Positions 29,801-64,000 of a DNA stretch of 64,000 bases are shown here, one piece after another. The DNA lies in assembly GCA_016194975.1 (NCBI GenBank), contig JACQAM010000007.1:255947-319946 (forward strand). The letters are read 5' to 3'. Origin of the DNA: Bacteroidota bacterium (GTDB taxonomy: Bacteria > Bacteroidota > Bacteroidia > Palsa-965). The notes beneath the pieces were generated by a model that was given only the letters and a program-made list of their open reading frames with translations, did no database searches and had not been told where the DNA came from. Made by a program: the position numbers and the translations under genes. Numbering within the stretch: position 1 is the first letter of the stretch; the number at the start of each line of letters is the position of its first letter.

Positions 29801-30560
29801 GGGATACAGCCAGGTCGTTACAAGAACAAATAATCTTACCTATACCAATCTTGGTGTTTTCACAGGAATATTATACAGCACTACTTACAATGTAGATATC
29901 TCTGCTTACGTAGGGGGAGTTTGGGGAGCTTATGGAAATGTATGCACACTCACTACACCACCAACACCAACTTCACAATTGACGGGCGCTTCCTGCGGAG
30001 CAACCGGTGTAACGAATGCTACTAATCTTTATTACTCTGCTGTTACCACTGCAACCAATTACAAGATCCGCATGTCGAATGCCGGCCTCGGTTACAGCCA
30101 GATTTTAACGAGAGGAAATAATTCAACCTACTACCGGATCAGTTCATTCACCGGGCTTCTCACGAACACCACTTACAACGTAGATATTTCTGCATACGTC
30201 GCTGGTGTGTGGGGCGCTTATGGAACTGTTTGTACGATCACCACAGCATCGGCGCTCAGATATGCTGCGCCCGATGATCCGAATGGAAATTCCGATGCAG
30301 CTTCTTTCAGTGTCTATCCGAATCCTTCGCCCAACGGATCATTCAACGTAAGTCTGAATTCATTCGGTAACGACCAGGGCAGTGCTCAGATAGAAATGTT
30401 CGACCTGCTCGGGAATCTCGTTTATGCGCAATCTTATGCATACAGTTACGGCGATATTATCACAGTGGAATCTCCTGCAGAATTAGTTACCGGAATTTAT
30501 GTGATGCGTATAACTGCAAATGGAATTTCAGTGAATGAAAAAGTTTCCATCGAACGATAA
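26850..30560 (+). CDS. giant secreted T9SS cargo protein: SBBP beta-propeller repeats, SprB repeats, Ig/FN3-like domains and Por C-terminal sorting domain
   Basis: Signal peptide. About 9 repeats of the (TADFDPGAGxANLxSAGxxDIFxAKY…) ~50-aa SBBP motif. At least 5 SprB-type ~85-aa repeats (SQTNVxCNGGxDGSATxxASGGTxxYTYSWxPSGG…TYTCTVTD). C-terminal type-A sorting tail. Confidence 0.8.
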   Translation: MKNLTSFRGTALLIATAISSLLFSQSPSYVWAKGVGGTGADQGMVNKTDGAGNVIVAGTFSGTADFDPGAGTANLISAGSTDIFIAKYNSTGDYTWAFGLGSTNSDSPGDFAIDGSNNIVVTGGFIGTVDFDPGAGVANLTSASGSTPDIFIAKYDASGNYVWAERIGSSTGGDQGKGIAFDSGGNIIISGYFFGTADFDPGAGTANLVSFGSFDACLAKYDASGNYIWAKKMGGVSSDQGGRIAIDGSGNIDFTGTFNGTADFDPSAGVANLTSAGATDIFLGQYNSSGSYLWADRIGGTLADQSSGIGTDGSNNVLLNGYFNGTADFDPGAGTANLVSAGGSDIFLGKYSSAGAYVWAGKMGGTLTDQGSGLVVDGSGNSYTTGLYTGAADFDPSAANANLISAGSTDAFMAMYNSSGAYVSAKSVGGTGGDAGNNITLNSSGDLIVAGYFSGTADFDPSAATANLVSAGSTDIFYGDYLMCTFATASLSSQTNVSCNGGSDGSATITAGGGSSFTYSWAPSGGTAATASGLTAATYTCTVTNQCGNTATQTVIITQPIAITSSISSQTNVTCNGGNDGSATVSASGGTGAFTYSWSPSGGSAATGTSLSAGTYTCTITDANGCTHTQTATITQPSGILSSISSQTDNTCFGGSSGSATVSASGGTGALTYSWSPSGGTASTASGLAAATYTCTITDASGCTHTQTVTITQPTIITTSVSSQSNVSCNGANDGSATIAASGGTPGYTYSWAPSGGSAASASGLSPGTYTVTVTDANGCVVTQTLTITEPAVLVASTGGNATICAGSSTTLTAGSSGGTAVVTFNWMPGSLSGSSVSVSPAATTTYTVTATDAHGCTSTATSTVTVNPLPTVTASASPASMCSGNSSTLTSTGATTYSWNPGSMSGASVSVSPVATTTYTVTGTDGNGCVNTATVTVTINNCAGSMLTPTWCGATLTSMTQNFYWTATSGATNYHIRVQNASLGYSQVVTRTNNLTYTNLGVFTGILYSTTYNVDISAYVGGVWGAYGNVCTLTTPPTPTSQLTGASCGATGVTNATNLYYSAVTTATNYKIRMSNAGLGYSQILTRGNNSTYYRISSFTGLLTNTTYNVDISAYVAGVWGAYGTVCTITTASALRYAAPDDPNGNSDAASFSVYPNPSPNGSFNVSLNSFGNDQGSAQIEMFDLLGNLVYAQSYAYSYGDIITVESPAELVTGIYVMRITANGISVNEKVSIER

Positions 30561-44370: not shown

Positions 44371-46968
44371 ATGAAAAAATTTTTACTCGTTGCAGCACTT
44401 CTTTCCGTAAGTAGTCTCGCGAAATCGCAGGCGCTTGCTGCTTCCTCTTCTCAAACCGATGTCACCTGCTTCGGCGCGTGTAACGGATCTGCAACTGTCA
44501 TTGCATCCGGAGGAACTTCTCCATACTCTTACAACTGGTCGCCGAGCGGCGGTACCGCGGCAACTGCGAGTGCGCTCTGCGCCGGAAATTATACTTGCAC
44601 AGTTACTGATGCCGTTTTCGCTTCGGTGAATGTTACGGTCAACATCACACAACCCACTCCAATTACTATCAGTCCTTCGCAGCAGAATGTTTCATGCAAT
44701 GGAGGAAACGATGGCCATGCACTCGCAACGGTAAGCGGCGGCGCGGGATTTTTCACTTACTCATGGTCGCCCGTCGGTGGAAATGCACCGATTGCTAATT
44801 CCCTGACTGCGGGAATTTATACCGTCACTGTCACGGATGCAAATTCATGTACAGCTTCCCAAACATTTCAGATCACAGAACCTCCCGCACTGAGCGCAAC
44901 AAATGCTATTGTAAATGTAAGTTGCTTTGGCGGGTCAGACGGAAGTGCCGTGGTAACTGTCAATGGCGGAACTCCCGGTTATATGTATTCCTGGGCGCCG
45001 GGCGGATACACCACTGATTTTGCAAACGGGCTCAGCGAAAATCTTTATCTCGTTTCCATCACGGATCTCAATGGTTGTTTTCTCCGTGACACGGTCAACA
45101 TAAGCGCTCCTTCGCAATTAACGAGTTCAATTACAGGAACAGATGTTACCTGTTTCAATTCCAATGACGGAACAGCAATGATCACAGTCAATGGCGGCAC
45201 CGGGCCTTTCAATTATTCCTGGGCGCCGAATGGTGGATCCGGGAATACACAAACGGGGCTTTCAGCAGCCACCTATACGTGTAATGTTACAGATGCGCAT
45301 GGTTGTACTACAACACAAACCATCGATATCACGGAACCGGCGCCGCTTTCTTCGATTGATTCGCAAACCGACGTAAGTTGTTTCGGTGGCAGCAACGGAT
45401 CTGCATCAGTGAGTGTAAGCGGCGGCAATGGATCCTATTCTTACAACTGGTCGCCCTCAGGAGGAAATTCTTCTATGGCGGGCGCACTCATGGCCGGAAG
45501 TTATTCCTGTACCATCACCGATATCAATGGATGCATGCTTACCGAAACTTTCAGTTTAACAGAACCATCGCTTATCACTGTTGTAGGTTCGCAGTTCGAT
45601 GCGTCATGCAGTGGCGGCAATAACGGCAGTGCGACTGTAAATGCAAGTGGAGGAACGGGGCCGCTTACTTATTCCTGGACAAGCGGCGGAACGGCCGCAA
45701 CAGAAACTTCGCTGTCGGCAGGATCTTACACCTGCACAGTTACAGATATGAATGGTTGTGTTGCAACACAAACCTTCGTTATCACGGAACCAGCTGCGAT
45801 GACTTCGAACGCGATGATCACCGGTGTCACCTGTTATAATTTCAACAACGGAAGCATCACGCTCAATATGAATGGCGGAGCGGCTCCTTATAATTATTAC
45901 TGGTCCGATTTTTCCAATAATGCTTATGATTCGATGCTCGTTGCCGGAGTTTACACACTCACCGTGCAGGATGCAAACAGTTGCGTTTTCAATGATACAT
46001 TCACTGTTTCTCAACCTGCACCGCTTTCATTTGTGGTAACGCAAACTGACATTTCTTGTCACGGTAATAACGATGGAACTGCTTCCGTAACTCCATCCGG
46101 TGGAACCGGCCCCTATACTTATTTGTGGAATACCGGGAATACTTCTTCATCACTCACCGATCTTTCACAGGGAATTTACACTTGTGTTGTTACCGATTCG
46201 AACGGATGCGTTGATTCAGCACAGGCATCTATTTATGATCCGGGACAATTGGTAGCATTTGTACAGGCGGTGTTGAATCCAACAACATGTGGCGCTTCTG
46301 ATGGCGGAATTAATATTGCAATGACCGGTGGAACACAACCTTTCATTTACCAATGGAGTAACGGCGATACGATCGAAGATCTTTACAATATTGCTGCCGG
46401 TGTTTATTCACTCACTGTAACTGATGCGCATGGTTGCGTTGGAACTGCACTTGCAACACTCAGCGATCCGAATGCTCCTGTTGTTGCAATGACGCTGCCG
46501 GAAACTTTCATTTGCATTGACGATGATACACTCCTGATTTCCGGTATTCCTGCAGGAGGAACTTTCACCGGCAATGGAATGAATGGAAGTGTTTTCGATC
46601 CATCTCTCGCCGGGTTGGGTCAAAGTGTGATAGCGTATGCGTACACGGATACGAACGGATGTTTGGGCGCGACCACTGACACGATCACTGTGGATCCGTG
46701 TACAGGAATACAGGTGAATGCCGATTATTCTCAATGGAATATTTTCCCGAATCCTACGACCGGTGATGTTTTTATTACTGCTTACGTGCCAACAGAAGAA
46801 CCTGTGCATGTTCAGCTTTTTTCTTCAGAAGGAAAATTGATCCGCGATGTGGAATGGAATACAAAAGATGAAATGCATTTCGGAATACAGGACGAGGCAA
46901 GCGGCATTTATCTTGTGAGAATTATTTCTGCAGATTCTGAAAAATCATTCCGCATCATCAGGCAATAA
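44371..46968 (+). CDS. secreted T9SS cargo protein with about 8 SprB repeats and Por C-terminal sorting domain
   Basis: Signal peptide. Repeats (SQTDVTCFGxxNGSATVxASGGTxPYSYNWSPSGGTAAT…TYTCTVTD…). C-terminal module shared with the 47130 gene. Por tail. Confidence 0.8.
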   Translation: MKKFLLVAALLSVSSLAKSQALAASSSQTDVTCFGACNGSATVIASGGTSPYSYNWSPSGGTAATASALCAGNYTCTVTDAVFASVNVTVNITQPTPITISPSQQNVSCNGGNDGHALATVSGGAGFFTYSWSPVGGNAPIANSLTAGIYTVTVTDANSCTASQTFQITEPPALSATNAIVNVSCFGGSDGSAVVTVNGGTPGYMYSWAPGGYTTDFANGLSENLYLVSITDLNGCFLRDTVNISAPSQLTSSITGTDVTCFNSNDGTAMITVNGGTGPFNYSWAPNGGSGNTQTGLSAATYTCNVTDAHGCTTTQTIDITEPAPLSSIDSQTDVSCFGGSNGSASVSVSGGNGSYSYNWSPSGGNSSMAGALMAGSYSCTITDINGCMLTETFSLTEPSLITVVGSQFDASCSGGNNGSATVNASGGTGPLTYSWTSGGTAATETSLSAGSYTCTVTDMNGCVATQTFVITEPAAMTSNAMITGVTCYNFNNGSITLNMNGGAAPYNYYWSDFSNNAYDSMLVAGVYTLTVQDANSCVFNDTFTVSQPAPLSFVVTQTDISCHGNNDGTASVTPSGGTGPYTYLWNTGNTSSSLTDLSQGIYTCVVTDSNGCVDSAQASIYDPGQLVAFVQAVLNPTTCGASDGGINIAMTGGTQPFIYQWSNGDTIEDLYNIAAGVYSLTVTDAHGCVGTALATLSDPNAPVVAMTLPETFICIDDDTLLISGIPAGGTFTGNGMNGSVFDPSLAGLGQSVIAYAYTDTNGCLGATTDTITVDPCTGIQVNADYSQWNIFPNPTTGDVFITAYVPTEEPVHVQLFSSEGKLIRDVEWNTKDEMHFGIQDEASGIYLVRIISADSEKSFRIIRQ

Positions 46969-47129: not shown

Positions 47130-50003
47130 ATGAAATCAAAATTCTACATGAAATGGAATGCATTGCATGCACGTGTTGCGGCAATGAGTTTTGCGATCCT
47201 GCTGTTGTTCAATCTTCATTCAGATGCGCAAACTGTTTACACATTTACCAGCGCGGCTGCCACTGGCGTTAATGGCCCTACGCAGGCGCAGGTGAACACA
47301 GCTTATACTTCAACAACACTTGCCGGAGCTGTTACTGTTGTAAGTAATGGAATTCAGCAATGGACAGTACCTGCAACAGGAAATTATACCATTGAAGGAT
47401 ACGGAGCGCAGGGAGGAAACGGAACCGGATTTAGCCTGATCGGTGGAAGAGGCGCTTACATCAAAGGAACATTTAATCTCACTGCTGGAACTGTTCTCAA
47501 TATTGTTGTAGGACAGATCGGCGCTGATGCAAGTTCAGGAAGTTCTGGTGGCGGCGGAACTTTTATTTACACAGGTGCAATTGGCGGCGCAGGATTAATG
47601 ATCGCTGCCGGTGGTGGTGGCGGAACAGGACACAACGTTGCGAATGGTGGAAACGGAAGTGCAACGAGTACTCCCGTTAGCAGCGGAACAGGAAGAGGAG
47701 ACGGCGGATACCAGGGATTAGGAATGGGTGGAAATGGTGGATCAGGTGTTGGAGGATATTCTGCAACGTGGAATAATGCTGCAGCTGGTGGTACAGGTTG
47801 GGGAAGTAGTGGACTCGCAGGATTTTTCCAGGGCGATGTTACTTATCAGAGTAATCCGGGAACAAGATTCACCGGAGGATATCATGGAACTGTGAATACA
47901 GATTTTCCCGGCGGATTTGGTGGAGGTGGTGGTTGCGGTGGTTGGGGATATTCTGGTGGTGGTGGCGGTGGATACACTGGTGGCGGTGGTGGAGATGACT
48001 GGGACGGAAATTCCGGGCCGTGCTCTTGCGGCCATGGCGGTGGACAAGGTGGTGGAAGTTTCAATTCAGGAACAAGTCAAACCAATACTGCCGGTGTAAG
48101 AAGCGGGGACGGAACTCTGATCATCACTAACATTTATTCAGCTACAACTGCAGTTTCATCACCAATCACTTGCAATGGCGCATCGAATGGTTCTCTTACT
48201 GTAACGGTGACCGGCGGAACGAGTCCTTATACTTATTCATGGGCGCCAACAGGAGGAACTGCTGCAACGGCTAGTGGATTATCTGCGGGAACTTATACCG
48301 TAACCGTAACTGATGCTACTTCCGCAGTTACTACAAGTACATTCAATCTTACACAACCGTCAGTAATCTCTACTTCTGTTTCTTCGCAAACGAACGTTTC
48401 CTGCAATGGCGGATCGAACGGAGTGATCAACGTTTTTGTTACCGGTGGAACACCCGGCTACGCTTACTCGTGGGCGCCATTGGGGGGAAGTATGGCAACG
48501 GCATCCGGCCTTCCTGCAGGAACCTATACCTGCACGGTCACCGATGCGAATGGTTGTACTGCAACACAACCTGCCGTCATAACACAACCAACGGCAATTA
48601 CAACTTCTGTTTCGGCTCAAATGAACATTACCTGCAACGGAGGCAACAACGGATCTGCAACCGTCACTCCTTCCGGAGGAACTCCGGCCTATTCTTTTTC
48701 CTGGTCACCATCGGGAGGAACCTCTGCATCGGCTTCCAGCCTGCCGGTAGGGTCATATACCTGCACGGTCAGCGATGCCAATGGTTGTACTGTAACACAA
48801 ACCGTGATGATCACAGAACCTACGGCTATCGTTACTTCGGTTTCTTCACAGACGAATGCAACCTGCAATGGAAACATGGACGGATCTGCAACAGTTGCTG
48901 CTTCGGGCGGAACCGGCGCTTATACTTACATGTGGAGTCCGACCGGTGGTTCTACGGCTATGGCAACGGGACTTGGTGCCGGAAGTTATTCCTGCACGAT
49001 CACGGATGCCAATGGTTGTACTGCAACACAAACACTCAGCATCACAGCACCGATGACGGTCACGTCTTCCGTTTCCAGCCAGATGGATGCTACATGCAAC
49101 GGAGGAAGCGACGGATCAGCTACGGTAATGGCTTCCGGAGGAACCGGGCCTTACACTTACGCGTGGAGTCCAATGGGAGGAAATGCTGCAATGGCAGCAG
49201 GACTTTCAGCCGGAACTTATTCCTGCTTGGTCACGGATATGAATGGTTGTACTACAACACAAACCGTTATGATCGCTGAACCTTCGCCGATCATTGTAAC
49301 AACAATGGGAACTGATCCTACCGGATGCGGCGCAAATGACGGGTCTATAACCATGTCTGTGAACGGCGGAACACCCGGATATACTTTCATGTGGAGCAAC
49401 AGTGCGACGACACAGAATATTTCCGGACTCACCGCAGGAACCTACACCTGCATCATTACCGACATGAACGGATGCAGCGCGAATGGAAGTGCAACACTGG
49501 TGGATCCGAATCCTCCAACGGTGACTTTGAATATTCCGACTTCGACTATTTGCTTCGATGATGCCACACTCGCATTGACCGGTGAATCTCCTTCGGGCGG
49601 AACATTCAGCGGAAGTGGTGTAACCGGAAATTCATTCGATCCTTCGGTTGCGGGAAACGGAACACAAGTGATCACTTATATGTTCACTGCCACCAATGGA
49701 TGCTCCGGTACAGCAATGGATTCTATAGTTGTTGATCCTTGTACAGGAATCCGGAATGCAAATTCCAATTCAACATGGAATCTTTATCCGAACCCTACGA
49801 CGGGCGAAATTTTCATCACAGGTTCATTGCACCAGGAAGTCCGTGTACAGTGTTTCACCTCTGATGGAAGAATGATCCGTGATTTCATGATGATCCCGAA
49901 TGATAATTCGAAATTCAGTTTGAGCAATGAAGCGAGCGGGCTTTACCTCGTGCGCATCATCTCTTCTGAAAAAACAGAATCGTTCAGGATCACCAAACAA
50001 TAA
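47130..50003 (+). CDS. secreted T9SS cargo protein: N-terminal glycine-rich domain, about 8 SprB repeats, Por C-terminal sorting domain
   Basis: Signal peptide. About 250-aa Gly-rich region (…GAQGGNGTGFSLIGGRGAYIKGTF…GGGGGYTGGGGGDDWDGNSGPCSCGHGGGQGGG…), then SprB repeats and a tail paralogous to the 44371 gene. Confidence 0.8.
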   Translation: MKSKFYMKWNALHARVAAMSFAILLLFNLHSDAQTVYTFTSAAATGVNGPTQAQVNTAYTSTTLAGAVTVVSNGIQQWTVPATGNYTIEGYGAQGGNGTGFSLIGGRGAYIKGTFNLTAGTVLNIVVGQIGADASSGSSGGGGTFIYTGAIGGAGLMIAAGGGGGTGHNVANGGNGSATSTPVSSGTGRGDGGYQGLGMGGNGGSGVGGYSATWNNAAAGGTGWGSSGLAGFFQGDVTYQSNPGTRFTGGYHGTVNTDFPGGFGGGGGCGGWGYSGGGGGGYTGGGGGDDWDGNSGPCSCGHGGGQGGGSFNSGTSQTNTAGVRSGDGTLIITNIYSATTAVSSPITCNGASNGSLTVTVTGGTSPYTYSWAPTGGTAATASGLSAGTYTVTVTDATSAVTTSTFNLTQPSVISTSVSSQTNVSCNGGSNGVINVFVTGGTPGYAYSWAPLGGSMATASGLPAGTYTCTVTDANGCTATQPAVITQPTAITTSVSAQMNITCNGGNNGSATVTPSGGTPAYSFSWSPSGGTSASASSLPVGSYTCTVSDANGCTVTQTVMITEPTAIVTSVSSQTNATCNGNMDGSATVAASGGTGAYTYMWSPTGGSTAMATGLGAGSYSCTITDANGCTATQTLSITAPMTVTSSVSSQMDATCNGGSDGSATVMASGGTGPYTYAWSPMGGNAAMAAGLSAGTYSCLVTDMNGCTTTQTVMIAEPSPIIVTTMGTDPTGCGANDGSITMSVNGGTPGYTFMWSNSATTQNISGLTAGTYTCIITDMNGCSANGSATLVDPNPPTVTLNIPTSTICFDDATLALTGESPSGGTFSGSGVTGNSFDPSVAGNGTQVITYMFTATNGCSGTAMDSIVVDPCTGIRNANSNSTWNLYPNPTTGEIFITGSLHQEVRVQCFTSDGRMIRDFMMIPNDNSKFSLSNEASGLYLVRIISSEKTESFRITKQ

Positions 50004-50063: not shown

Positions 50064-51521
50064 TTGATCATGCGGAAAATATTCCTCCCACTTTTTCTTT
50101 TTTTCTTTTTCCACAAGATCTCCGCCCAGAGTTTTCTCGGTTACGAACACAGCAATTATGCAGGAATAGTCGGCGCTTCGTACAATCCTGCTTCGCTCGC
50201 CGATAATAATTACAGTCTCGATATCCTGGTCGGCGGTTTAGATGTGGAAGGAGCGAATAATTATGTGGGCGTAAAAAGAAAAGACTTCGGAATTCCCGAT
50301 TGGGGAACGCAGAATCTTTATTTGCGCGATGGAAGAAATACGAAGAAAGCTGCATTCGCACGAGCGGAGATTCTTTTGCCCGCGGTGATGTTCTCCAATG
50401 ATAAATTCGGATGGGGCGTAGATATGAAGATACGCACGTATGCAAATATTGACGGAGTGGAACCTGAGCTCGCGCACCTGCTCGCACGCGGATTGAAAGA
50501 TCCTGCCGACTATCAGGAATTTCATAATAAGCACGTGGGTGCGAATGCGTGTTCGTGGTTCGAGATCGGCGGCACTTATTCGAAAACTATATGGACCGGC
50601 GCTGAACATTTTGTGAGTGTAGGTGTGCGCCCTAAATTTTTACTCGGTCTCGGCGCCGCTTATGCTTTTGTAAATGATCTCGAGTACCAGGCGTATAGCG
50701 ACACTACTGTCGGAATTTTCCGTTCCGATCTGAAATTCGGCCACTCGGATAATTTCGCATTCGGCGCAAATTTTTCATGGCAGGGGTATCACATCGGGTT
50801 CAATCCGGGAATAGGATTGGATGCAGGAATCATTTATGAATTTCGCCCGGACGCAATGCAGAAAGACAAAAAAGATAAACCGAAAGAATGGCCCGGATTC
50901 CGTGAGCGTCCGATTTACAAATACCGGATTGGTGCATCACTGACCGATCTCGGCATCATTCATTTCCGTTCCGGTATTTTTACCGATCATTATTCTGCAA
51001 ATTCAGAGGACTGGAATTTCAATAACAAAGATTTAAACTATACAGAGCCCGGCCCGATCTACAATAATTTTTCATTGGGGAATGCAGGAAAAGGAAGCGG
51101 AAAAGGATTGTGGATGCGCACACCGCTGGCCCTCGATCTTTTTTACGATTATCATTACCGCGATAATATTTATTTAAGCGGGCAATCTTTCAATGCACTT
51201 TATTTCCGCGGAACTGATTTTAAAAAAGTTCACGAGCTCACGCGCATAAGCGTGACCGCGCGCTACGAAACGCGCTGGTACGGTGCGTGGGTGCCCGTAT
51301 CATTCACGCGCATGGGCACAGTGAGCATGGGCGCGGGATTCCGTCTGGGTCCGTTCATTTTCGGAACGACAGATCTTTTAAATCTCATTCTGAAAAGCAA
51401 AAAAGTTTACAATGCGGATTTTTACTTCGCGCTGAAAGTTCCGCTCTTCCCGACCGGAAAACTGAAAACGAAAAAAGGAAAAGCAAAGACGGGAGGAAAT
51501 CCGGTTGATTGTCCGAAGTAG
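50064..51521 (+). CDS. outer-membrane protein, possibly FadL/OmpP1/PorV-like beta-barrel
   Basis: Signal peptide. The N-terminus …NYAGIVGASYNPASLAD… resembles the conserved FadL-family N-terminal segment (…AGxxxAxxNPAxL…). Unusually, the C-terminus is Lys-rich and not aromatic. Confidence 0.4.
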   Translation: MIMRKIFLPLFLFFFFHKISAQSFLGYEHSNYAGIVGASYNPASLADNNYSLDILVGGLDVEGANNYVGVKRKDFGIPDWGTQNLYLRDGRNTKKAAFARAEILLPAVMFSNDKFGWGVDMKIRTYANIDGVEPELAHLLARGLKDPADYQEFHNKHVGANACSWFEIGGTYSKTIWTGAEHFVSVGVRPKFLLGLGAAYAFVNDLEYQAYSDTTVGIFRSDLKFGHSDNFAFGANFSWQGYHIGFNPGIGLDAGIIYEFRPDAMQKDKKDKPKEWPGFRERPIYKYRIGASLTDLGIIHFRSGIFTDHYSANSEDWNFNNKDLNYTEPGPIYNNFSLGNAGKGSGKGLWMRTPLALDLFYDYHYRDNIYLSGQSFNALYFRGTDFKKVHELTRISVTARYETRWYGAWVPVSFTRMGTVSMGAGFRLGPFIFGTTDLLNLILKSKKVYNADFYFALKVPLFPTGKLKTKKGKAKTGGNPVDCPK

Positions 51522-52100: not shown

Positions 52101-54497
52101 ATGAACGAACAACTTATTTATCTGGTTCCCGCATTGGGAATTCTCGGACTCATTTTCATGATCCTCAAATCGGCGTGGGTGAGTAAACAGGATGCGGGAA
52201 ACGATCGCATGAAAGAAATTGCAGGATATGTTTCAGAAGGAGCGATGGCATTCCTGAAAGCTGAATATCGCATTCTCGCAATTTATGTCGTACTCGCCGG
52301 CAGCGCACTCGGTTGGTTGAGCCAAGAGGTAACTACTTCTCACATTCTTATCGTCGCTGCATTTGTTTGCGGATGTATTTTTTCTGCACTCGCCGGATTT
52401 TTCGGAATGCGAATCGCTACAAAAGCAAACGTTCGCACAACGCAGGCGGCGAGAACTTCTCTTGCAAAAGCACTGAGAGTTTCTTTCACCGGCGGAACAG
52501 TGATGGGACTCGGTGTTGCCGGACTCGCAGTTCTCGGACTAAGTATGCTCTTCATTATTTTTTTCCAGTTTTTCATGCAGAGTTCACTTGCGAATGGCGG
52601 ATATGAAAAAATGACGCAGGTACTTGAAGTGCTCGCAGGATTTTCTGTGGGTGCAGAATCGATCGCGCTTTTCGCTCGTGTGGGCGGTGGAATTTATACC
52701 AAAGCCGCAGATGTTGGAGCCGATCTCGTTGGAAAAGTAGAGGCAGGAATTCCGGAAGATGATCCGCGTAATCCCGCAACCATTGCAGATAACGTTGGTG
52801 ATAATGTGGGTGACGTTGCAGGAATGGGCGCCGATCTTTTCGGATCGTACGTCGCAACAGTTCTCGCGTCGATGGTGCTGGGCAATTATGTGATTCGCGA
52901 TATGGTTGCAGCGAATGGAAATTATGATGTGATCCCGTTCAAAGGACTCGGCCCCATTTTTCTTCCACTCATGATCTCTGCTGCAGGATTATTCGCTTCC
53001 ATCATCTCCAGTTATTTTGTGAAGGTTGCCGACAATGCAAAAACAGATACACGTACCGTACAACGGGCACTCAATATCGGAAACTGGTCTTCGATTCTTC
53101 TCTCGCTCGTAGCCGCTTATTTTCTCATTCAGCAATGTTTGCCTGCAACAATGAACATCAGTGTTTTCAACGCGGGTGAATTCGGAAAAGCAACTACAAC
53201 AAGTATGCATATTTTCTATGCGGTGATGATCGGAATGTTTGTAGGTGGTGCAATTTCATTTATCACCGAATATTTTACCGGCCTCGGCGGGCGTCCTGTA
53301 AGAGGCATCGTCGAAAAATCTGCGACAGGTGCAGCAACAAATATTATCGCCGGGCTCGGAACAGGAATGTTATCTACTGCACTTCCTGTAATTCTTTTCG
53401 CAGGTGCGATCTGGGGCGCGTATTCACTCGCAGGATTTTACGGAGTAGGAATTGCAGCGTGCGCGATGATGGCGAACACCGCAATGCAATTGGCGATCGA
53501 TGCATTCGGTCCCATTGCAGACAACGCCGGCGGAATTGCAGAGATGAGTGAACTTCCTGCAGAGGTTCGAGAGAAAACAGACGTACTCGATTCAGTTGGA
53601 AATACAACTGCTGCTATCGGGAAAGGATTTGCAATTGCATCCGCAGCGCTTACTGCACTCGCACTTTTCGCTGCTTACGTAACATTCACCGGCATCAACG
53701 GAATAAATATTTTCGATGCAAAAGTTCTCGCTGCGTTATTTCTCGGCGGAATGATCCCGGTTGTTTTCTCCGCGCTCGCTATGAATTCGGTTGGTAAAGC
53801 AGCAATGGATATGGTGAATGAAGTACGCCGGCAGTTCCGCGAAATACCCGGCATCATGGAAGGAAAAGGAAAACCTGAATATGCAAAGTGTGTTGCTATT
53901 TCCACGAAAGCTGCATTGCGCCAGATGTTATTGCCGGGCGTGATCACGATCGTAACTCCAATCATTGTTGGATTGGTGATGGGCGCAGAAGCGCTCGGTT
54001 CTTATATGGCAGGCGTAACCGTGAGCGGTGTACTCTGGGCAATTTTCCAGAACAATGCCGGTGGTGCGTGGGACAATGCAAAAAAATCTTTTGAAAAAGG
54101 TGCGGAGATAGAAGTGAACGGCAAGAAAGAAATTTTTTATAAAAAATCTGATCCGCATAAAGCGGCTGTCGTTGGTGATACGGTTGGTGATCCTTTCAAA
54201 GATACTTCCGGCCCGTCGATGAATATTCTCATCAAGCTTTCCTGTCTCGTTGGACTCATGCTTGCACCACTTCTCGCCGGACACAATGCTACCGCAATGA
54301 ACAACATGTGCAAAGGAAATTCCTGCTGCACCCAGATGATGAATATGAAATGCGATCTGAATAAATGCATGCACATGACGCAGCAACAATGCGCGCAGTA
54401 TTGCGACTCGATGAAATGTACGCCCGAAGAAAAAGAAATGTGTTTGAAACATGCAATGGGTGGAAGCTGCTACGATTCGACAAAGTGCAATAAGTAA
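52101..54497 (+). CDS. hppA: membrane-bound (K+-stimulated) H+/Na+-translocating pyrophosphatase with an unusual Cys/Met-rich C-terminal extension
   Basis: Multi-transmembrane protein with the M-PPase conserved segments (…DNVGDNVGD…, …GDTVGDPFKDTSGPSMNILIKL…). Length 798 aa. Confidence 0.9.
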   Translation: MNEQLIYLVPALGILGLIFMILKSAWVSKQDAGNDRMKEIAGYVSEGAMAFLKAEYRILAIYVVLAGSALGWLSQEVTTSHILIVAAFVCGCIFSALAGFFGMRIATKANVRTTQAARTSLAKALRVSFTGGTVMGLGVAGLAVLGLSMLFIIFFQFFMQSSLANGGYEKMTQVLEVLAGFSVGAESIALFARVGGGIYTKAADVGADLVGKVEAGIPEDDPRNPATIADNVGDNVGDVAGMGADLFGSYVATVLASMVLGNYVIRDMVAANGNYDVIPFKGLGPIFLPLMISAAGLFASIISSYFVKVADNAKTDTRTVQRALNIGNWSSILLSLVAAYFLIQQCLPATMNISVFNAGEFGKATTTSMHIFYAVMIGMFVGGAISFITEYFTGLGGRPVRGIVEKSATGAATNIIAGLGTGMLSTALPVILFAGAIWGAYSLAGFYGVGIAACAMMANTAMQLAIDAFGPIADNAGGIAEMSELPAEVREKTDVLDSVGNTTAAIGKGFAIASAALTALALFAAYVTFTGINGINIFDAKVLAALFLGGMIPVVFSALAMNSVGKAAMDMVNEVRRQFREIPGIMEGKGKPEYAKCVAISTKAALRQMLLPGVITIVTPIIVGLVMGAEALGSYMAGVTVSGVLWAIFQNNAGGAWDNAKKSFEKGAEIEVNGKKEIFYKKSDPHKAAVVGDTVGDPFKDTSGPSMNILIKLSCLVGLMLAPLLAGHNATAMNNMCKGNSCCTQMMNMKCDLNKCMHMTQQQCAQYCDSMKCTPEEKEMCLKHAMGGSCYDSTKCNK

Positions 54498-56785: not shown

Positions 56786-58990
56786 ATGTACAATAATCAG
56801 CCTGAAAAATTTACTGCGACTGCCTTCAATTTCTGCCATCGCACTGCTATCGGCCAGGGCGCGTCAACTTATTTGCCATTGGCCGGTGGCACGCAACAGC
56901 CTTCCTCAACCGGTGAAACAAGTATTTTAATTTCTCGAAGCGGAACGTTGAAAAATCTTTTCTGGGATTGCAAATCAAATTCACTGACCGGATCGGGAAA
57001 TATATTTACTGTTCAATTTGCTTTAGAACATGTTTCACCTGCTAATGCGCTTGCCCTTGGAAATAATATTTCAGTTTCACTCGATGGCAAAATAACAAAT
57101 GGAACCGGCGTGCTTAGCTTAAATGTCAGTGCAGGACAGCGCATTGCTATATTGGTACAAACAGCCTCTGGCGGACCGTCTACAAATATTGTAAATCTCA
57201 GAGTCTCCTTTGAACTCGAATCAGATTTACCGCAACCTAATCCATGGAATTTATCCGGAACAAATCTTTCTTACACCGGAGGTAATGTTGGAATTAATAG
57301 TATTAACCCTTCGGAGAAATTGGACGTGAGCGGTTCAGTAAAAATTGTGGATGGAACGCAAGGAGCAGGAAAAGTTTTTACATCAGATAACAATGGTAAG
57401 GGAAGCTGGGTAACACCAAATAATTTGCCGAATGGAACGAATGGGCAAACGCTTAGGCATGATGGAACAAATTGGAAAGCAGATTCCAATTTATTTAATG
57501 ATGGAACCAGGGTTGGAATCGGAACACTGACGCCGCAATATTATTTCGAAGTCCATCATCCGGATAGCACATCTACTATTGCGGTTACAACAAGCCAGAG
57601 TAATGGATACGCTCAGTTTATTATGACTAATCCTGATTCTATTTGGGCAATGGGTTTCGTTGACGGTGGTCTGAGTGACTGGCGACTTGCAAATTATTCT
57701 ACGGGTGTCCGCGTTTTAACAGCAACAACAACGGGAAGGTTGGGTATTGGAGTACAAATCCCAAGAGCTAAACTTGACGTTGATGGTGATATTAATATTT
57801 CAGGAGGCAGCACAATTAAAATTGATTGCGAAGATATTTTAGTGGTTAAACAAAACAACACTTTCATCGGTCTGCAAGCTGGCTACAATAACGGGCATCA
57901 TTTATCTAATTCAGGATTTGGTGACAGAGCATTAGCAGACAACATGGGAGATGAAAACAGCGCTTTTGGTTGTTCGCCATTGCAGTTTAATAAAACCGGC
58001 ATTCAGAATTGTGCGTTTGGCAACTCTACACTTTTGCAGAATACAGATGGTTCAGGCAATACAGCGATGGGTTATCAATCCGGGATGAAAAATGCTTCCG
58101 GTAACAATAATACTTACATCGGAATTAATTCCAGAACAACAGGAAATTATGATAACTCAACAGCCATCGGTGCAAATTCAATTGTTGAACAAAGTAACAG
58201 TTTAGTGCTTGGTGATTTAAATGTAAATGTTGGAATAGGAATTACAAAACCACAAGACAAACTTCATGTAGAAGGAAGTATAAATATTGGAACTTCTTGT
58301 GCTTATAAAATTGATGGAAGCAGGGTATTAGTCAAAAGTGGGCAAAATTTATTGCTTGGTGATGCAAATACGAATGTTGGAATCGGATCAACTGATCCAC
58401 GAGAGAAAATCACACTTGGATCTGATTCTAATATTGCAATTGAAATGTCGCCTCCATCAACTTCAATTATCACCGGCCATCACGCAATTGGTTACTTAAC
58501 AGAGGGAGACGTTTACTATTTCAGGGTAGCAGCTTCCGACGGAACAGGATGGACGAGAGCTTCTGATCCCGTGTCATTTATTGTCGATGTTTACAAAACT
58601 ATTCGCATTGGTTGGAACGCGATTCCGGGAGCAATGAACTATAGATTGTTTAAATCCTCTTCTCCTTCAGGCCCCTATAGTTTTGTTGATGTGCCGTCGG
58701 GTTCAGGGCCATCCGCAGGTTATGAATTTATGAACGAGGCGCAATTCACGATCACATCATTTCCTCCTCCGGAAGAAAACACTGCGTATGTCAATAAATT
58801 ATCTGCTTCCGGCAATAGTTGGTTGATGGGGGGAAATCTTGGTATCGGAACATCTGCTCCGACGAGTCAATTGCAGGTCGTTGGTTTGCCGGTGTATACA
58901 AATAATCTTGCAGCGCGAAATGCAGGTTTATCGCAAGGAGCTTTCTACAGAACCGGCGGTGATCCGGATTTGGTTTGCGTGGTGCATTAA
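56786..58990 (+). CDS. phage tail-fibre-like / fibre-repeat protein without a signal peptide
   Basis: Repeated …GNVGINSINPSEKLDVSGSVKI…, …TRVGIGTLTP…, …GRLGIGVQIP…, …VNVGIGITKPQDKLHVEGSINIG…, …GNLGIGTSAPTSQLQVVG… motifs. NSxAxG-type head repeats. One FN3-like domain. Confidence 0.5.
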   Translation: MYNNQPEKFTATAFNFCHRTAIGQGASTYLPLAGGTQQPSSTGETSILISRSGTLKNLFWDCKSNSLTGSGNIFTVQFALEHVSPANALALGNNISVSLDGKITNGTGVLSLNVSAGQRIAILVQTASGGPSTNIVNLRVSFELESDLPQPNPWNLSGTNLSYTGGNVGINSINPSEKLDVSGSVKIVDGTQGAGKVFTSDNNGKGSWVTPNNLPNGTNGQTLRHDGTNWKADSNLFNDGTRVGIGTLTPQYYFEVHHPDSTSTIAVTTSQSNGYAQFIMTNPDSIWAMGFVDGGLSDWRLANYSTGVRVLTATTTGRLGIGVQIPRAKLDVDGDINISGGSTIKIDCEDILVVKQNNTFIGLQAGYNNGHHLSNSGFGDRALADNMGDENSAFGCSPLQFNKTGIQNCAFGNSTLLQNTDGSGNTAMGYQSGMKNASGNNNTYIGINSRTTGNYDNSTAIGANSIVEQSNSLVLGDLNVNVGIGITKPQDKLHVEGSINIGTSCAYKIDGSRVLVKSGQNLLLGDANTNVGIGSTDPREKITLGSDSNIAIEMSPPSTSIITGHHAIGYLTEGDVYYFRVAASDGTGWTRASDPVSFIVDVYKTIRIGWNAIPGAMNYRLFKSSSPSGPYSFVDVPSGSGPSAGYEFMNEAQFTITSFPPPEENTAYVNKLSASGNSWLMGGNLGIGTSAPTSQLQVVGLPVYTNNLAARNAGLSQGAFYRTGGDPDLVCVVH

Positions 58991-59149: not shown

Positions 59150-60007
59150 TCAAAACTGAAAATAAAATCCAACGTGTAAACCAAAAGTCTTCAGGTGAAA
59201 TTTCTGCTCGATTGCAACCGGTTTTCCATTGGTGAGAAAATTTGATTCCGTCGCACCTTCATCCATGTTATAAATCGAATATTTTTTTACAGGATTACTC
59301 AGGCCGTGTGTCCAGTGCGATCCGAAAGCAAAAACAAAATGTTTTCCGAGTTCAATCCTGTTTTCCATCCCGGCATATAAGGTGAACAAAGTAGAATTCA
59401 TTTCATTCCTGGTGACTGCATCCCCGAGCGTAACGAAGATCTCCGTCGAATCAGAATATTTGTAATAGTAATCTTCAAAATCAGTTTCTGTCCTGAATTG
59501 CAATTCTCCTCCAACTATGAAAGTGAAAGAATAAATATCATACTTCACGATCCGGAAATTCACCAGCATTGGAACTACTGCGTAATTTGATCCGTAAGTC
59601 CGCGAATCAAACAAACATTTATTGGTTCCCGGATGAAGACGCAGATAACTGCTGTCGATCTGGCTGATGGGAACAAGCGCATTGCCGGACTGGTAAACCA
59701 TGATCGCCTTCTCGCTCTCAATTCTGCCAGCGATACGCGCGAAAAAAATTCCTGATGTGAAAAATATTTTTGGCTTCCATTCATACCCCGCAACCAACCC
59801 GATCGATAACGTCTCGACGATTCCACCTAATCCAAGTCCGCCTTCAAGAATATCGGGCCTCCTGTAAACCTGGCTGTTCTCCGGTTTGAAATTTGTCCAT
59901 TCCAATGAGGGTTGCACACCGATCATGAAACGATGTGCGATCGAATCCTGCGAATGAGCAAAAAAAGTTGCTGTAGAAAAAAGCGAACTGAGAATTATTT
60001 TTTTCAC
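59150..60007 (-). CDS. hypothetical outer-membrane beta-barrel protein
   Basis: Signal peptide MKKIILSSLFSTATFFAHSQ. C-terminal …VGFYFQF (terminal Phe). Confidence 0.5.
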   Translation of the reverse strand: MKKIILSSLFSTATFFAHSQDSIAHRFMIGVQPSLEWTNFKPENSQVYRRPDILEGGLGLGGIVETLSIGLVAGYEWKPKIFFTSGIFFARIAGRIESEKAIMVYQSGNALVPISQIDSSYLRLHPGTNKCLFDSRTYGSNYAVVPMLVNFRIVKYDIYSFTFIVGGELQFRTETDFEDYYYKYSDSTEIFVTLGDAVTRNEMNSTLFTLYAGMENRIELGKHFVFAFGSHWTHGLSNPVKKYSIYNMDEGATESNFLTNGKPVAIEQKFHLKTFGLHVGFYFQF

Positions 60008-60261: not shown

Positions 60262-61920
60262 ATGAAAAACCTCTTTACCCTATTCTTCCTTTTAATTTCT
60301 TCTGCAATTTTTTCTCAAACTCCCGGCTGGAACTGGTCGCGTGTTGCCGGAGGAGAGAGTTACGATCTCGGAAGTTGTATTGCCACTGATAATTCGAACA
60401 ACGTGATCACGTGCGGATATTTTTACGGCGACACGGTTTTTTTCGGCACACATACTTTGCTTAACAAAGGCCTCAACGATTTTTACATTGTGAAATATGA
60501 TGCAAATGGAAATGTGGCCTGGGCAACGAGTGAAGGTGGTGCTGGTGATGATTATGCAATTGCGCTCGCGCCTGATGCTTCCGGAAATATTTATGTCACC
60601 GGTTATTTCACCGGCGATTCGCTCATCATCGGTAACGACACCTTGTTGAATGCATCGGCCGGCTACGGAGATATTTTTGTGGCGAAATATAATTCGAATG
60701 GAATTCCCCAATGGGCAAAACGTTTCGGCGCGGGCGACTGGGATATTGCGCAAGCGGTAGCGGTTGAACCTTCTACAGGAAATTTTTATGTGGCCGGATG
60801 TTATTACAACAGCACGATCACTATCGGAACAAATACATTCACCAACAACGGACTTTACGATGTACTGCTGATAAAATTCGATCCTTCCGGAAATGTGAAG
60901 TGGGCAAAACATTCCGGCGGCTCGCTCAATGATATGGGCAATGCAGTGGCGACAGATAACTTCGGAAATATTTATATCTCCGGTGGATTTGCAAGTGATT
61001 CGCTCACGTTCGGCACAACTACTTTGCATAATGCAGGCCCGGGTTATCCCGATATTTTTGTTGCGAAATATGATTCGGCAGGAAATTTCCGCTGGACAAA
61101 ACGCGCTGGCGATTCGCTGAACGATCATTCTGTTTGTGTGGCCACTGATAATTCCGGGAATTGTTTTGTAGGCGGGCATTATCACAGCGCCTCATTTCAA
61201 TTTGCAAGTACTACGATCACGAACAATGGAATGGGCGATGTGTATTTGTTGAAATATGATTCTGCAGGAAATGAATTGTGGGGAAGAGGCCAGGGCGGAG
61301 CGATGCATGATTTCGGTTATGCAGTGGCGGTAGATGCGGTGGGAAATTCCTACATGAGCGGAATGTTCAACAGTTCGTCAATGACAATTGGCACAACAAC
61401 GCTAACAAATTCTTCCATGAGCAGCCAGGATATGTTTTTATACAAATACGATCCTTCCGGAAATCCGTTGTGGGCGATTAGTGCAGGAGGAATGACGGAC
61501 GATGAAATGAATTCCATTGCCATCGGATCTTCCGGCGCAATATACGCGACCGGCGACTGGAGAAGCCCGATGATAAATTTTGGCCCCGATAATTATTTCA
61601 ATGAAGATTCCACGATCGGTTATGCCGATATTTTCATTGGGAAATTAGATGTGATGACGGGAATGAGTACTATGAGTGAAACAAAAAATATTTTTCTGTA
61701 TCCCAATCCTTCGAATGGAATTTTCACCATCCGGAATAATTTTTCCGAAACTTTTGAACTGCAAATTTTCAATTCACTCGGACAGGAAATTCTTCGCAAA
61801 GAAAATCTGAATGAAAATAATTTTGAAATTGATCTGGGCAGTGAAGCCAATGGAATTTATTTCATGAAGGTAATGAGCGATGAAAATATTTATTCGGAAA
61901 AAATAATCATTGAGAAATAA
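60262..61920 (+). CDS. secreted SBBP beta-propeller-repeat protein with Por C-terminal sorting domain
   Basis: Signal peptide. About 9 repeats of (…GDIFVAKYNSNGxxxWAKRFGG…). Tail TKNIFLYPNPSNGIFTIRNNFSETFELQIFNSLGQEIL…IIIEK. Confidence 0.8.
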   Translation: MKNLFTLFFLLISSAIFSQTPGWNWSRVAGGESYDLGSCIATDNSNNVITCGYFYGDTVFFGTHTLLNKGLNDFYIVKYDANGNVAWATSEGGAGDDYAIALAPDASGNIYVTGYFTGDSLIIGNDTLLNASAGYGDIFVAKYNSNGIPQWAKRFGAGDWDIAQAVAVEPSTGNFYVAGCYYNSTITIGTNTFTNNGLYDVLLIKFDPSGNVKWAKHSGGSLNDMGNAVATDNFGNIYISGGFASDSLTFGTTTLHNAGPGYPDIFVAKYDSAGNFRWTKRAGDSLNDHSVCVATDNSGNCFVGGHYHSASFQFASTTITNNGMGDVYLLKYDSAGNELWGRGQGGAMHDFGYAVAVDAVGNSYMSGMFNSSSMTIGTTTLTNSSMSSQDMFLYKYDPSGNPLWAISAGGMTDDEMNSIAIGSSGAIYATGDWRSPMINFGPDNYFNEDSTIGYADIFIGKLDVMTGMSTMSETKNIFLYPNPSNGIFTIRNNFSETFELQIFNSLGQEILRKENLNENNFEIDLGSEANGIYFMKVMSDENIYSEKIIIEK

Positions 61921-61927
61921 TTTTTTC

Positions 61928-63313
61928 ATGAAAACGAAATTCATTTTAGTTTTTGCAATCATTATCTTAGGTCTGCCATTTTATTTTTCTGCCCAGACTT
62001 TTAGCGGTGGTTACCAGCATTCACTCGCAATCTGTAGTGATCATACCGTAAAAGCGTGGGGAAATAATAGTTCGGGTGAGTTGGGAATTGGCAATACAAC
62101 TGATAGTTATTTTCCTGTTACGGTTAATTCTCTCACCGGGATCATTGCTGTTTCTGGCGGCGGCGGTTTTTCGATCGCGTTGAAAAATAACGGAACACTT
62201 TGGGCATGGGGTGATAATTCTACAGGCGAACTCGGAAATGGAAATAATGCAAGCAGCAATATTCCCGTGCAGGTTACGAACTGGACCACAGGTTATGTTT
62301 CGGTTGATGCAGGTTTCGACCATTTACTTGCAATAAAACCTGACGGAACCGTCTGGTCTTGGGGAACGAATACTTACGGGCAACTCGGAATCGGAAATTT
62401 CTCCAATAGCAATGTTCCTGTTCATGTTTTAGGTTTGACAGGAATTATCGCTGTGTCGGCAGGAAATGGAAATTCTCTCGCGTTGAAAAATGACGGAACC
62501 GTGTGGGCATGGGGACTGAATCATTCGGGCCAACTCGGCATCGGTGATACCGCGAACAGAAATCTTCCTGTGCAAATAAATATTACAAACATTATTTCTA
62601 TTTCTGCTGGTTATGCTCATTCGCTCTTTCTCAGGAATGACAGTACAGTTTGGGGCAGTGGTTGGAATGTTTATGGACAGCTCGGAACCGGAAATAATAT
62701 CAGCAGTAATACTCCAGTGCAATCAACGGGTCTTTCTGGAATAATTTCCATTACTGCAGGATGCGGACATTCGAATGCCTTGAAAAGCGATGGAACAATT
62801 TGGGCGTGGGGAGAAAATATGTCCGGTGAACTCGGTGACGGGAATGGTGAATTTGCAAGCAACGTTCCGGTCGCGGTTGCATTTCTCAACGGAGTTTCTA
62901 CAATAGGAATTGGCGGCAGGCAATCTTTTGCTCTGAAAAACGATGGAACATTCTGGACGTGGGGACAAAATAATTATGGACAACTCGGAAATGGAAATAC
63001 AAATGACAGCCCTGTTCCTGTGGAGTTGAATGGATTTTGCCAGGTTGCGGCTTCAGTAAATGAAATTGAAGAAACAAAAAATATTTTTCTGTTTCCCAAT
63101 CCTTCTTCCGGAATTTTCACAATCAGAAATAATTTTTCAGGAAATTATCAAATAGAAATTTTCAATTCACTCGGACAGGAAATTTTGCATAATGAAAACC
63201 TGAATGAAAATAATTTTGAAATTGATCTGGGCAGTGAAGCCAATGGAATTTATTTCGTGAAGGTAACGAGCGATGAAAAAATTTATTCACAGAAAATAAT
63301 TATTGAGAAATAA
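61928..63313 (+). CDS. secreted RCC1-repeat beta-propeller protein with Por C-terminal sorting domain
   Basis: Signal peptide MKTKFILVFAIIILG. Seven repeats of (…WxWGxNxxGQLGxGNxxxxxxPVxV…). Tail almost identical to that of the preceding gene. Confidence 0.8.
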   Translation: MKTKFILVFAIIILGLPFYFSAQTFSGGYQHSLAICSDHTVKAWGNNSSGELGIGNTTDSYFPVTVNSLTGIIAVSGGGGFSIALKNNGTLWAWGDNSTGELGNGNNASSNIPVQVTNWTTGYVSVDAGFDHLLAIKPDGTVWSWGTNTYGQLGIGNFSNSNVPVHVLGLTGIIAVSAGNGNSLALKNDGTVWAWGLNHSGQLGIGDTANRNLPVQINITNIISISAGYAHSLFLRNDSTVWGSGWNVYGQLGTGNNISSNTPVQSTGLSGIISITAGCGHSNALKSDGTIWAWGENMSGELGDGNGEFASNVPVAVAFLNGVSTIGIGGRQSFALKNDGTFWTWGQNNYGQLGNGNTNDSPVPVELNGFCQVAASVNEIEETKNIFLFPNPSSGIFTIRNNFSGNYQIEIFNSLGQEILHNENLNENNFEIDLGSEANGIYFVKVTSDEKIYSQKIIIEK

Positions 63314-63320
63314 TTTTTTC

Positions 63321-64000
63321 ATGAAATCAAAATTCATTTTAGTTTTTTTATTTTTTATTCTATCGGCAAATATTTTCGCGCAGGGAAACTGGTTGTGGGC
63401 GAAGAGTGCGACAGGCGCGAGTCCCGATGAAGGTTTTGCCGTTTGTACTGATACGGCAGGAAATGTTTTTGTTACAGGAGAGTTTCAAAGCCCCATCCTC
63501 ACTTTTGGATCTGTCAATCTTGTGAACACCGGTGCGTGGGATATTTTCATTGCTAAATATGATCCGAACGGAAACGTTCTTTGGGCAAAAAGAGCGGGTG
63601 GCGGAAGTGGTGATGAGGCATTTTCAATTTGCGCTGATCAAAATGGAAATATTTTTATCACGGGAACCTATTCCAGCTCTTCTATTACTTTCGGAAGCAC
63701 GACAATTACGAACGCCGGCGGCTATGATATATTCATTGCCAAGTATGATGCGAATGGAAATGCACTTTGGGCGAAAAGCGAAGGAGGAACAGGCACTGAT
63801 GTTGGTTATGGCGTAAGTGCAGACGCAACCGGAAATGTTTATTTAACCGGATATTTTTTCAGTCCGACGATGACCATCGGCACAACTCTCCTTACCAATG
63901 CAGGCAGCAGCGATATTTTTATTGCCAAATACGATCCGAACGGAAATGCGCTGTGGGCGAAAAGTTGCGGATCAACAGGAGGTGATGAAGGTGTCTCCGT
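63321..64000 (+). CDS. secreted SBBP beta-propeller-repeat protein, 3'-truncated by the window edge
   Basis: Starts MKSKFILVFLFFILSANIFAQ at the same IIIEK*-TTTTTTC-ATG junction. Repeats …GAWDIFIAKYDPNGNVLWAKRAGG… Open to the end of the window. Confidence 0.7.
   Translation, partial: MKSKFILVFLFFILSANIFAQGNWLWAKSATGASPDEGFAVCTDTAGNVFVTGEFQSPILTFGSVNLVNTGAWDIFIAKYDPNGNVLWAKRAGGGSGDEAFSICADQNGNIFITGTYSSSSITFGSTTITNAGGYDIFIAKYDANGNALWAKSEGGTGTDVGYGVSADATGNVYLTGYFFSPTMTIGTTLLTNAGSSDIFIAKYDPNGNALWAKSCGSTGGDEGVS

Follow-up and report, generated by a model that had tools for sequence, protein, structure and literature searches.

A shared sorting-tail and gene-junction module, and an RCC1 propeller next to SBBP propellers, in a tandem array of predicted type IX secretion cargo genes

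The last part of a 64,000-nucleotide (nt) stretch of a Bacteroidota genome (lineage Bacteroidia; Palsa-965; GenBank assembly GCA_016194975.1, contig JACQAM010000007.1, forward-strand positions 255,947 to 319,946; this whole stretch is called the window, and all coordinates refer to it) is occupied by three co-directional open reading frames (ORFs) that we read as cargo genes of a type IX secretion system (T9SS). They encode beta-propeller proteins of two kinds, follow one another with only 7 nt between them at both junctions, and share a repeated module that runs from the sorting tail of one gene across the spacer into the start of the next. The genes and the parts of the module are as follows.

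60262-61920, + strand: gene 1, an ORF of 552 amino acids (aa), T9SS type A cargo with an SBBP beta-propeller body
61928-63313, + strand: gene 2, an ORF of 461 aa counted from ATG, T9SS type A cargo with an RCC1 propeller
63321-64000, + strand: gene 3 (partial), 226 aa in the window, SBBP propeller, passing the window end
61678-61965, + strand: module copy 1, 288 nt (from repeat search and identity profile), GC 28.8%, composed of tail 61678-61917, stop codon TAA 61918-61920, spacer TTTTTTC 61921-61927 and, from gene 2, the ~12 initial codons, 61928-61965
63071-63358, + strand: module copy 2, 288 nt (from repeat search and identity profile), GC 25.7%, composed of tail 63071-63310, stop codon TAA 63311-63313, spacer TTTTTTC 63314-63320 and, from gene 3, the ~12 initial codons, 63321-63358
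61807-61863 and 63200-63256, + strand: block of 57 nt that is identical in both module copies

The initial annotation of this DNA had named the three bodies as SBBP, RCC1 and SBBP again, and profile matches bear this out. Genes 1 and 3 lie well above the gathering score of SBBP (PF06739, cut-off 20.5) with 39.4 and 45.7 bits, and repeat analysis gives a periodicity of ~190 nt for SBBP. Gene 2 has both hallmarks of an RCC1 propeller, i.e., seven repeat stretches matching RCC1 (PF00415, 250 bits) and a match to WD40_RLD (PF25390, 307 bits, cut-off 150). The extreme C-termini of genes 1 and 2 are T9SS type A sorting domains of 80 aa each: Por_Secre_tail (PF18962, cut-off 27) reaches 57.1 bits in gene 1 and 57.5 bits in gene 2, and the NCBIfam type A model TIGR04183 (cut-off 23) 52.4 bits over residues 479-551 of 552 and 57.6 bits over residues 388-460 of 461, respectively, whereas the type B model CHU_C remains under its threshold (18 vs 27 bits). 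At the other end, inspection by eye reveals N-termini made of M-K, then basic K (genes 2 and 3) or polar N (gene 1), 13-18 hydrophobic residues, S or A, and Q. The putative signal peptides are MKNLFTLFFLLISSAIFS in gene 1, MKTKFILVFAIIILGLPFYFSA in gene 2 and MKSKFILVFLFFILSANIFA in gene 3, each directly followed by Q; a glutamine after the signal-peptide cleavage site is a Bacteroidota pattern, and the three N-termini fit it.

Genes 1 and 2 are identical to the NCBI proteins MBI3510185.1 and MBI3510186.1 (the latter a 100% match, entry P0121), which are consecutive proteins of a 405-kb contig. Gene 3 was absent from the same protein collection when searched by its N-terminus, where the top match was 59% identical; given that genes 1 and 2 are present, this suggests that gene 3 carries a pseudogene annotation, or that some other disruption lies past the window end. 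On the 5' side, the neighbour of gene 1 is a gene on the opposite strand (59150-60007), and gene 1 itself begins with MKNLFTLFF..., without the start shared by genes 2 and 3; for both reasons we place the start of the array at gene 1. For the second of them, too, the conserved unit is the junction, and not both ends of every gene.

The two module copies differ at 36 of 288 positions (88% identity) and their edges are sharp. The left edge coincides with the first common residue of the sorting domain (ETKNIFL...) and the right edge follows the opening ~12 codons of the downstream gene (MK(T/S)KFILVF); identity per 30-nt bin is 73-100% within the module and falls to 10-43% beyond both edges. Each of the two end patterns occurs at only two sites in the window, with 0 expected by chance. 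The longest identical run between the copies is the 57-nt block, which codes for LNENNFEIDLGSEANGIYF and extends as far as the sorting domain's conserved GIYF stretch. The tail peptides and the junction IIIEK-TAA-TTTTTTC-ATG-K-T/S-KFILVF quoted in the initial annotation agree exactly with the sequence. Its description of the ends as near-identical is overstated: tails and junctions are indeed shared, at 88% nucleotide identity, but only two tails are visible and the start of gene 1 differs.

The similarity of the linked tails is special to them. The tails of genes 1 and 2 are 82.5% identical in aa and 89% in nt, compared with 27-31% (aa) and ~60% (nt) between them and the tails of the SprB-repeat proteins ending at 30557, 46965 and 50000, i.e., three of the window's four further tails of type A. 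Against the tail of an SBBP protein that is probably from the same assembly, as judged from its nearby NCBI accession (MBI3511646.1), the values are 41-44% aa. Thus, the outcome that the initial annotation had named as fatal to its idea, linked tails no closer to each other than to unlinked T9SS tails, is not what is seen (82.5% vs 27-31% aa).

The tails are also much less diverged than the bodies. By the Nei-Gojobori method the tails of genes 1 and 2 have a synonymous divergence (dS) of 0.33 and a nonsynonymous divergence (dN) of 0.09, i.e., a dN/dS of about 0.28, which indicates purifying selection, whereas the SBBP bodies of genes 1 and 3 have a saturated dS of ~2.5 and 48% protein identity. 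Third codon positions are identical at 82.5% of sites in the tails and at 44% in the aligned bodies of genes 1 and 3. Between the bodies of genes 1 and 2 no homology is detectable (best E = 0.61). The contrast in dS supports the view that the module copies diverged from a common ancestor far younger than that of the bodies that they join. It does not follow that the shuffling was recent, as had been claimed, since 12% nucleotide divergence and a dS of 0.33 are old enough for substantial drift.

Tail and body histories disagree as well. In an exhaustive search of 1.84 billion representative proteins with a profile of both tails, 186 matches fell below 1e-10, and a neighbour-joining tree was made of 37 tails. 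The closest tails, by identity to that of gene 2, belong to P0241 (70%; SBBP body, C-terminus KIYSEKIIIEK), P0242 (65%; LVIVD propeller body) and P0244 (55%; SBBP body, N-terminus MKSKFI...), after which further SBBP proteins come next. In the tree the gene 2 tail pairs with that of gene 1 within a clade of SBBP and LVIVD tails, so that three propeller folds (SBBP, RCC1, LVIVD) bear this tail clade. Among RCC1 homologs with a C-terminal domain (CTD; n = 12), the bodies are 38-54% identical to gene 2, but the tails just 19-38.5%. The linkers that precede the shared part are typical of the body families: gene 2 has 'GFCQVAAS...', as compared with 'GLCQV...' in RCC1 homologs, and gene 1 'GKLDVMTGM...', as compared with 'AKL..TTGM/I' in SBBP homologs; the breakpoint therefore falls at the boundary between body and CTD. 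A sharp-edged identity tract, lower synonymous divergence and discordant phylogeny, the signs by which recombinational transfer is recognised, are all found here. The best reading, from comparison of the sequences, is that recombination at domain boundaries brought together an RCC1 body and tail-junction modules of SBBP type, as a domain swap or as gene conversion of the ends, because selection on the protein alone fails to account for the synonymous sites, the spacer and the differing tails of the window. The tail-clade carriers found (seven of eight SBBP, none RCC1) suggest a transfer in which the RCC1 gene gained SBBP-type ends.

An array with comparable junctions exists elsewhere. An unrelated metagenome contig (L008, JGI Ga0377202_0000222) carries co-directional genes with SBBP and Por_Secre_tail domains, the tails of which are 79-89% identical in nt, with near-identical spacers of 25-26 nt and near-identical signal-peptide starts. 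It resembles the window in having SBBP genes with CTDs in tandem that share tails, spacers and starts; it differs in that all of its bodies are SBBP, for which whole-gene duplication is enough, whereas the array of the window has an RCC1 body between the junctions. Since the SBBP-only array of L008 has them, homogeneous tail-spacer-start junctions are an ordinary product of tandem duplication, and what the window adds is the non-homologous body in the middle. The second gene of L008 is split into an N-terminal fragment (9362-9856) and a C-terminal fragment starting from an internal VLWAKSAGG repeat (10001-11023), probably a frameshifted or recombined pseudogene within the array. A locus in a Sphingobacteriaceae metagenome-assembled genome (MAG; L001) was also considered as a comparable array and rejected, its upstream neighbours being unrelated and without sorting tails.

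The nearest carriers of the tail clade stand alone in their genomic settings: P0241 and P0244 are each flanked by yceD and pdxA, and P0242 is at another locus. The yceD-pdxA site (L010, L011, L012 and the contig of P0244) is a conserved single-gene site, with rpmF adjoining P0241, and is not the locus of the window. Another RCC1/SBBP pair in the database has a common tail of a different subtype (56%), which hints that tail subtypes track lineage rather than cargo more generally. In one further protein, P0243 (1686 aa), about eight tandem CTD-like units lie inside the chain (...YGPNPTSDIVNVVLF...ADGIYSLNF...), several of them nearly identical, and the fold of the sorting domain apparently serves there as an internal repeat. 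Exact 32/33-mers of the tails had no match in species-representative genomes or JGI metagenomes, degenerate tail searches of the genome and metagenome collections returned relatives at 28-41% only, and a tail-only word-index search gave 0 candidates; in these genome and metagenome collections there was no close relative of the locus and no strain variant of it.

We consider it likely that an array of co-directional T9SS type A cargo genes, of tandem SBBP origin, begins with these three genes, in which one recombination inserted an RCC1 body between copies of the module. The array would have been founded as tandem SBBP paralogs sharing tail, spacer and signal-peptide start; recombination would then have put the RCC1 propeller body between two tail-spacer-start copies, with one breakpoint inside the signal peptide, after ~12 codons, and the other where the sorting domain begins, at its first residue, which is equivalent to saying that the own ends of an RCC1 gene would have been replaced by SBBP-type ends; and the module copies would since have drifted to 88% identity, with the tail under the purifying selection noted above. 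One past swap within an ordinary tandem paralog array explains all the observations. Judging from the families involved, the signal peptide would direct each product to the Sec pathway and the ~80-residue CTD would be recognised by the T9SS for crossing of the outer membrane. PorV carries T9SS cargo to PorU; PorU in turn cuts off the CTD and either sets the protein free or anchors it (PMC10202324; PMC12618676).

Several points weigh against this explanation, or against parts of it. The 57-nt run is longer than a random scatter of 36 differences predicts (P = 0.008), and the block could represent a second, later conversion tract, or a joint constraint on protein and nucleotides, outside a single-event model. 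The module is present in only two copies in the window; the C-terminus of gene 3 lies beyond 64000. Among SBBP proteins, body identity does not correlate with tail identity; the idea that the tail clade is clearly native to SBBP bodies was rejected on this ground, and the direction of transfer is, for the same reason, suggested rather than proven. That all three propellers use the Sec/T9SS route is a prediction by analogy with their families, and no T9SS core machinery was detected among those of the window ORFs that were scanned; given that the window has four further cargo genes of type A, and given the NCBI naming, a T9SS is likely to be encoded in the genome. The three genes probably form one transcript, a prediction from sequence suggested by spacers of just 7 nt and by a scan in which neither junction showed a terminator-like site.

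Another explanation is active cassette exchange, in which the 288-nt modules would act as recombination handles and bodies would be repeatedly swapped, deleted and duplicated, giving ongoing diversification of the surface. The RCC1 body is in fact flanked by direct repeats with a 57-nt identical run, which is enough for homologous recombination (the minimal homology for RecA is roughly 25-30 bp or more), the excess length of the identical block is compatible with repeated conversion, and the presence of the tail clade on three propeller folds would fit such a process. We nevertheless regard it as unlikely, given that a dS of 0.33 between copies speaks against frequent homogenisation, no recombinase match was obtained in the scanned ORFs next to the array, no shufflon-type inverted repeats are present, the closest relatives of the tails occur singly and at different loci, and strain variants were missing from the collections searched. 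An invertible-promoter or shufflon model was likewise rejected, as only AT-rich inverted pairs with 72-93% complementarity were found, none of them flanking a promoter region. Of the proposal in the initial annotation of recombination or gene conversion at conserved ends, what stands is the exchange itself, backed by the tail/body discordance and the age contrast; a dedicated shuffling mechanism is unsupported; one old swap suffices. Its further suggestion of a way to diversify secreted surface proteins finds no backing in a locus with neither recombinase nor shufflon-type inverted repeats, whose nearest tail carriers elsewhere are single genes.

That the metagenome assembler linked non-adjacent genes through shared tail sequence appears very unlikely. 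The source is a MAG, a 57-nt identical run is able to confuse small-k assemblies, and a short-k Logan assembly of a sample with this organism yields contigs of only ~5 kb; however, the 36 differences are spread to the left and to the right of the identical block, so that each junction is distinct, the contig measures 405 kb, 57 nt is below the largest k-mers in usual use, and the independent metagenome contig L008 has the same architecture for SBBP genes. We hold it to be extremely improbable that selection alone, i.e., a T9SS demanding this exact sorting signal, produced the likeness with no transfer between genes. The tail is under purifying selection and the conserved block stops at the GIYF stretch common to most type A tails compared, as such a demand would lead one to expect, yet the window has four further tails of type A, and the three compared reach only the 27-31% given above; third positions are 82.5% identical in tails vs 44% in SBBP bodies; and the non-coding spacer and the first codons of the next gene are conserved too, although selection at the protein level would not co-conserve one gene's tail with another gene's start as a contiguous block. 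A conserved RNA structure at the junction was rejected, the z-scores being +0.42 and -1.31 and the two folds different.

In base composition the module (26-29% GC) departs from the flanking bodies (~45%) and from the four other T9SS tails of the window (40-43%). Its GC content at third codon positions (GC3) is 26-31% vs the ~37-38% expected from the codon usage of the window, an estimated deficit of 1.3-2 standard deviations. The closest tail relatives, from contigs of ~40% GC, are equally AT-rich, and AT-richness therefore seems to be a trait of this tail clade; given these relatives and the small size of the GC3 deficit, a foreign origin of the module is unsupported. Matches to sigma-70-type promoters are no commoner than in shuffled sequence. 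Within the 57-nt block, TAATTTTG occurs on the + strand at 61818 and 63211, exactly 110 nt upstream of each next ATG; it fits the Bacteroidota -7 promoter consensus, TAnnTTTG, but arises from the N-N-F-E codons and so may be incidental.

The module could be seen as a portable 'exit-entry' cassette that combines one gene's sorting domain with the signals that start expression and export of its successor, and that serves as a homology handle by which whole propeller bodies of a T9SS surface-protein array are inserted, deleted or exchanged. The start parts of such a cassette would possibly be the TAnnTTTG-type promoter within the 57-nt block, the AT-rich translation-initiation region and the n-region of the signal peptide. 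We think this distinctly unlikely; if true, it would mean cassette-style variation of the cell surface in this lineage.

Among known systems, the closest precedent for the recombined array is that of the KLIKK proteases of Tannerella forsythia, clustered genes with unrelated bodies and a nearly identical CTD, for which the authors propose that genes already in existence were fused to SP/NTE/CTE sequences (PMC4404884). The likeness lies in unrelated bodies set between conserved entry and exit modules. In contrast to the SBBP and RCC1 propellers here, the KLIKK bodies are proteases, the shared region has a longer C-terminal extension (PMC4404884), and the terminal motif is KLIKK vs KIIIEK, with no sequence relationship; moreover, according to PMC9890683, each KLIKK gene follows a potempin inhibitor gene, whereas here the genes abut with a 7-nt spacer. 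Genes 1 and 2 are thus not members of the KLIKK group, and the comparison serves as an analogy. RgpA, Kgp and HagA of Porphyromonas gingivalis show domain rearrangements for which homologous recombination and gene conversion have been invoked (PMC5266723). These, too, are T9SS cargo with a conserved ~80-aa CTD and recombined modules, but there adhesin modules are shuffled among unlinked loci and strains, as known from population data, whereas here a CTD and junction are shared within one tandem array. Taken singly, the proteins of the window are no different from generic T9SS type A cargo (TIGR04183/PF18962; PMC10202324), with which they share a Sec signal peptide and an Ig-like C-terminal sorting domain, and the sole addition is the duplicated tail-junction module. 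A full-text literature search returned no paper combining T9SS, SBBP and C-terminal domain.

The window as a whole has six complete T9SS cargo genes, genes 1 and 2 among them, in addition to the partial gene 3. Three encode large SprB-repeat proteins on the + strand (26850-30560, 44371-46968 and 47130-50003), whose sorting tails are of type A rather than type B and which have internal tandem repeats of 231 nt. The one at 26850-30560 also has SBBP-like repeats of 195 nt and an Ig_7 domain; the other two are adjacent, their tails share 50% identity, and a DUF5723 gene (50064-51521) comes after them. An ORF of 1096 aa on the - strand (1821-5111) combines a glycosylhydrolase-like region, under the F510_1955 cut-off, with a type A sorting tail. 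Closer to the array, a H+-translocating pyrophosphatase (52101-54497, + strand, 798 aa) ends in an unusual Cys/Met-rich C-terminal extension of ~70 residues (...NNMCKGNSCCTQMMNMKCDLNKCMHMTQQQCAQYCDSMKCTPEEKEMCLKHAMGGSCYDSTKCNK), which by its composition looks like a putative metal-binding tail; a Logan contig from SRR12113409 encodes an identical pyrophosphatase protein. Immediately upstream of the array, an ORF of 734 aa (56786-58990, + strand) is Gly/Asn/Ser-rich, has the C-terminus ...GDPDLVCVVH and gave 0 Pfam or NCBIfam matches.

In sum, no dedicated shuffling mechanism is indicated, and the module, clearly copied between unrelated genes, is a real but fairly ordinary piece of the modular evolution of T9SS cargo. 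It would have few wider consequences unless the array were long and strain-variable, in which case it would amount to recombination-based variation of the Bacteroidota cell surface. As it stands, the locus offers a clean, datable case of growth of a T9SS cargo repertoire, with an unrelated propeller body placed between ready-made export and sorting modules, and it supports the type A CTD as a portable module that evolution reuses, as found experimentally in CTD-fusion work and suggested for the KLIKK proteases.

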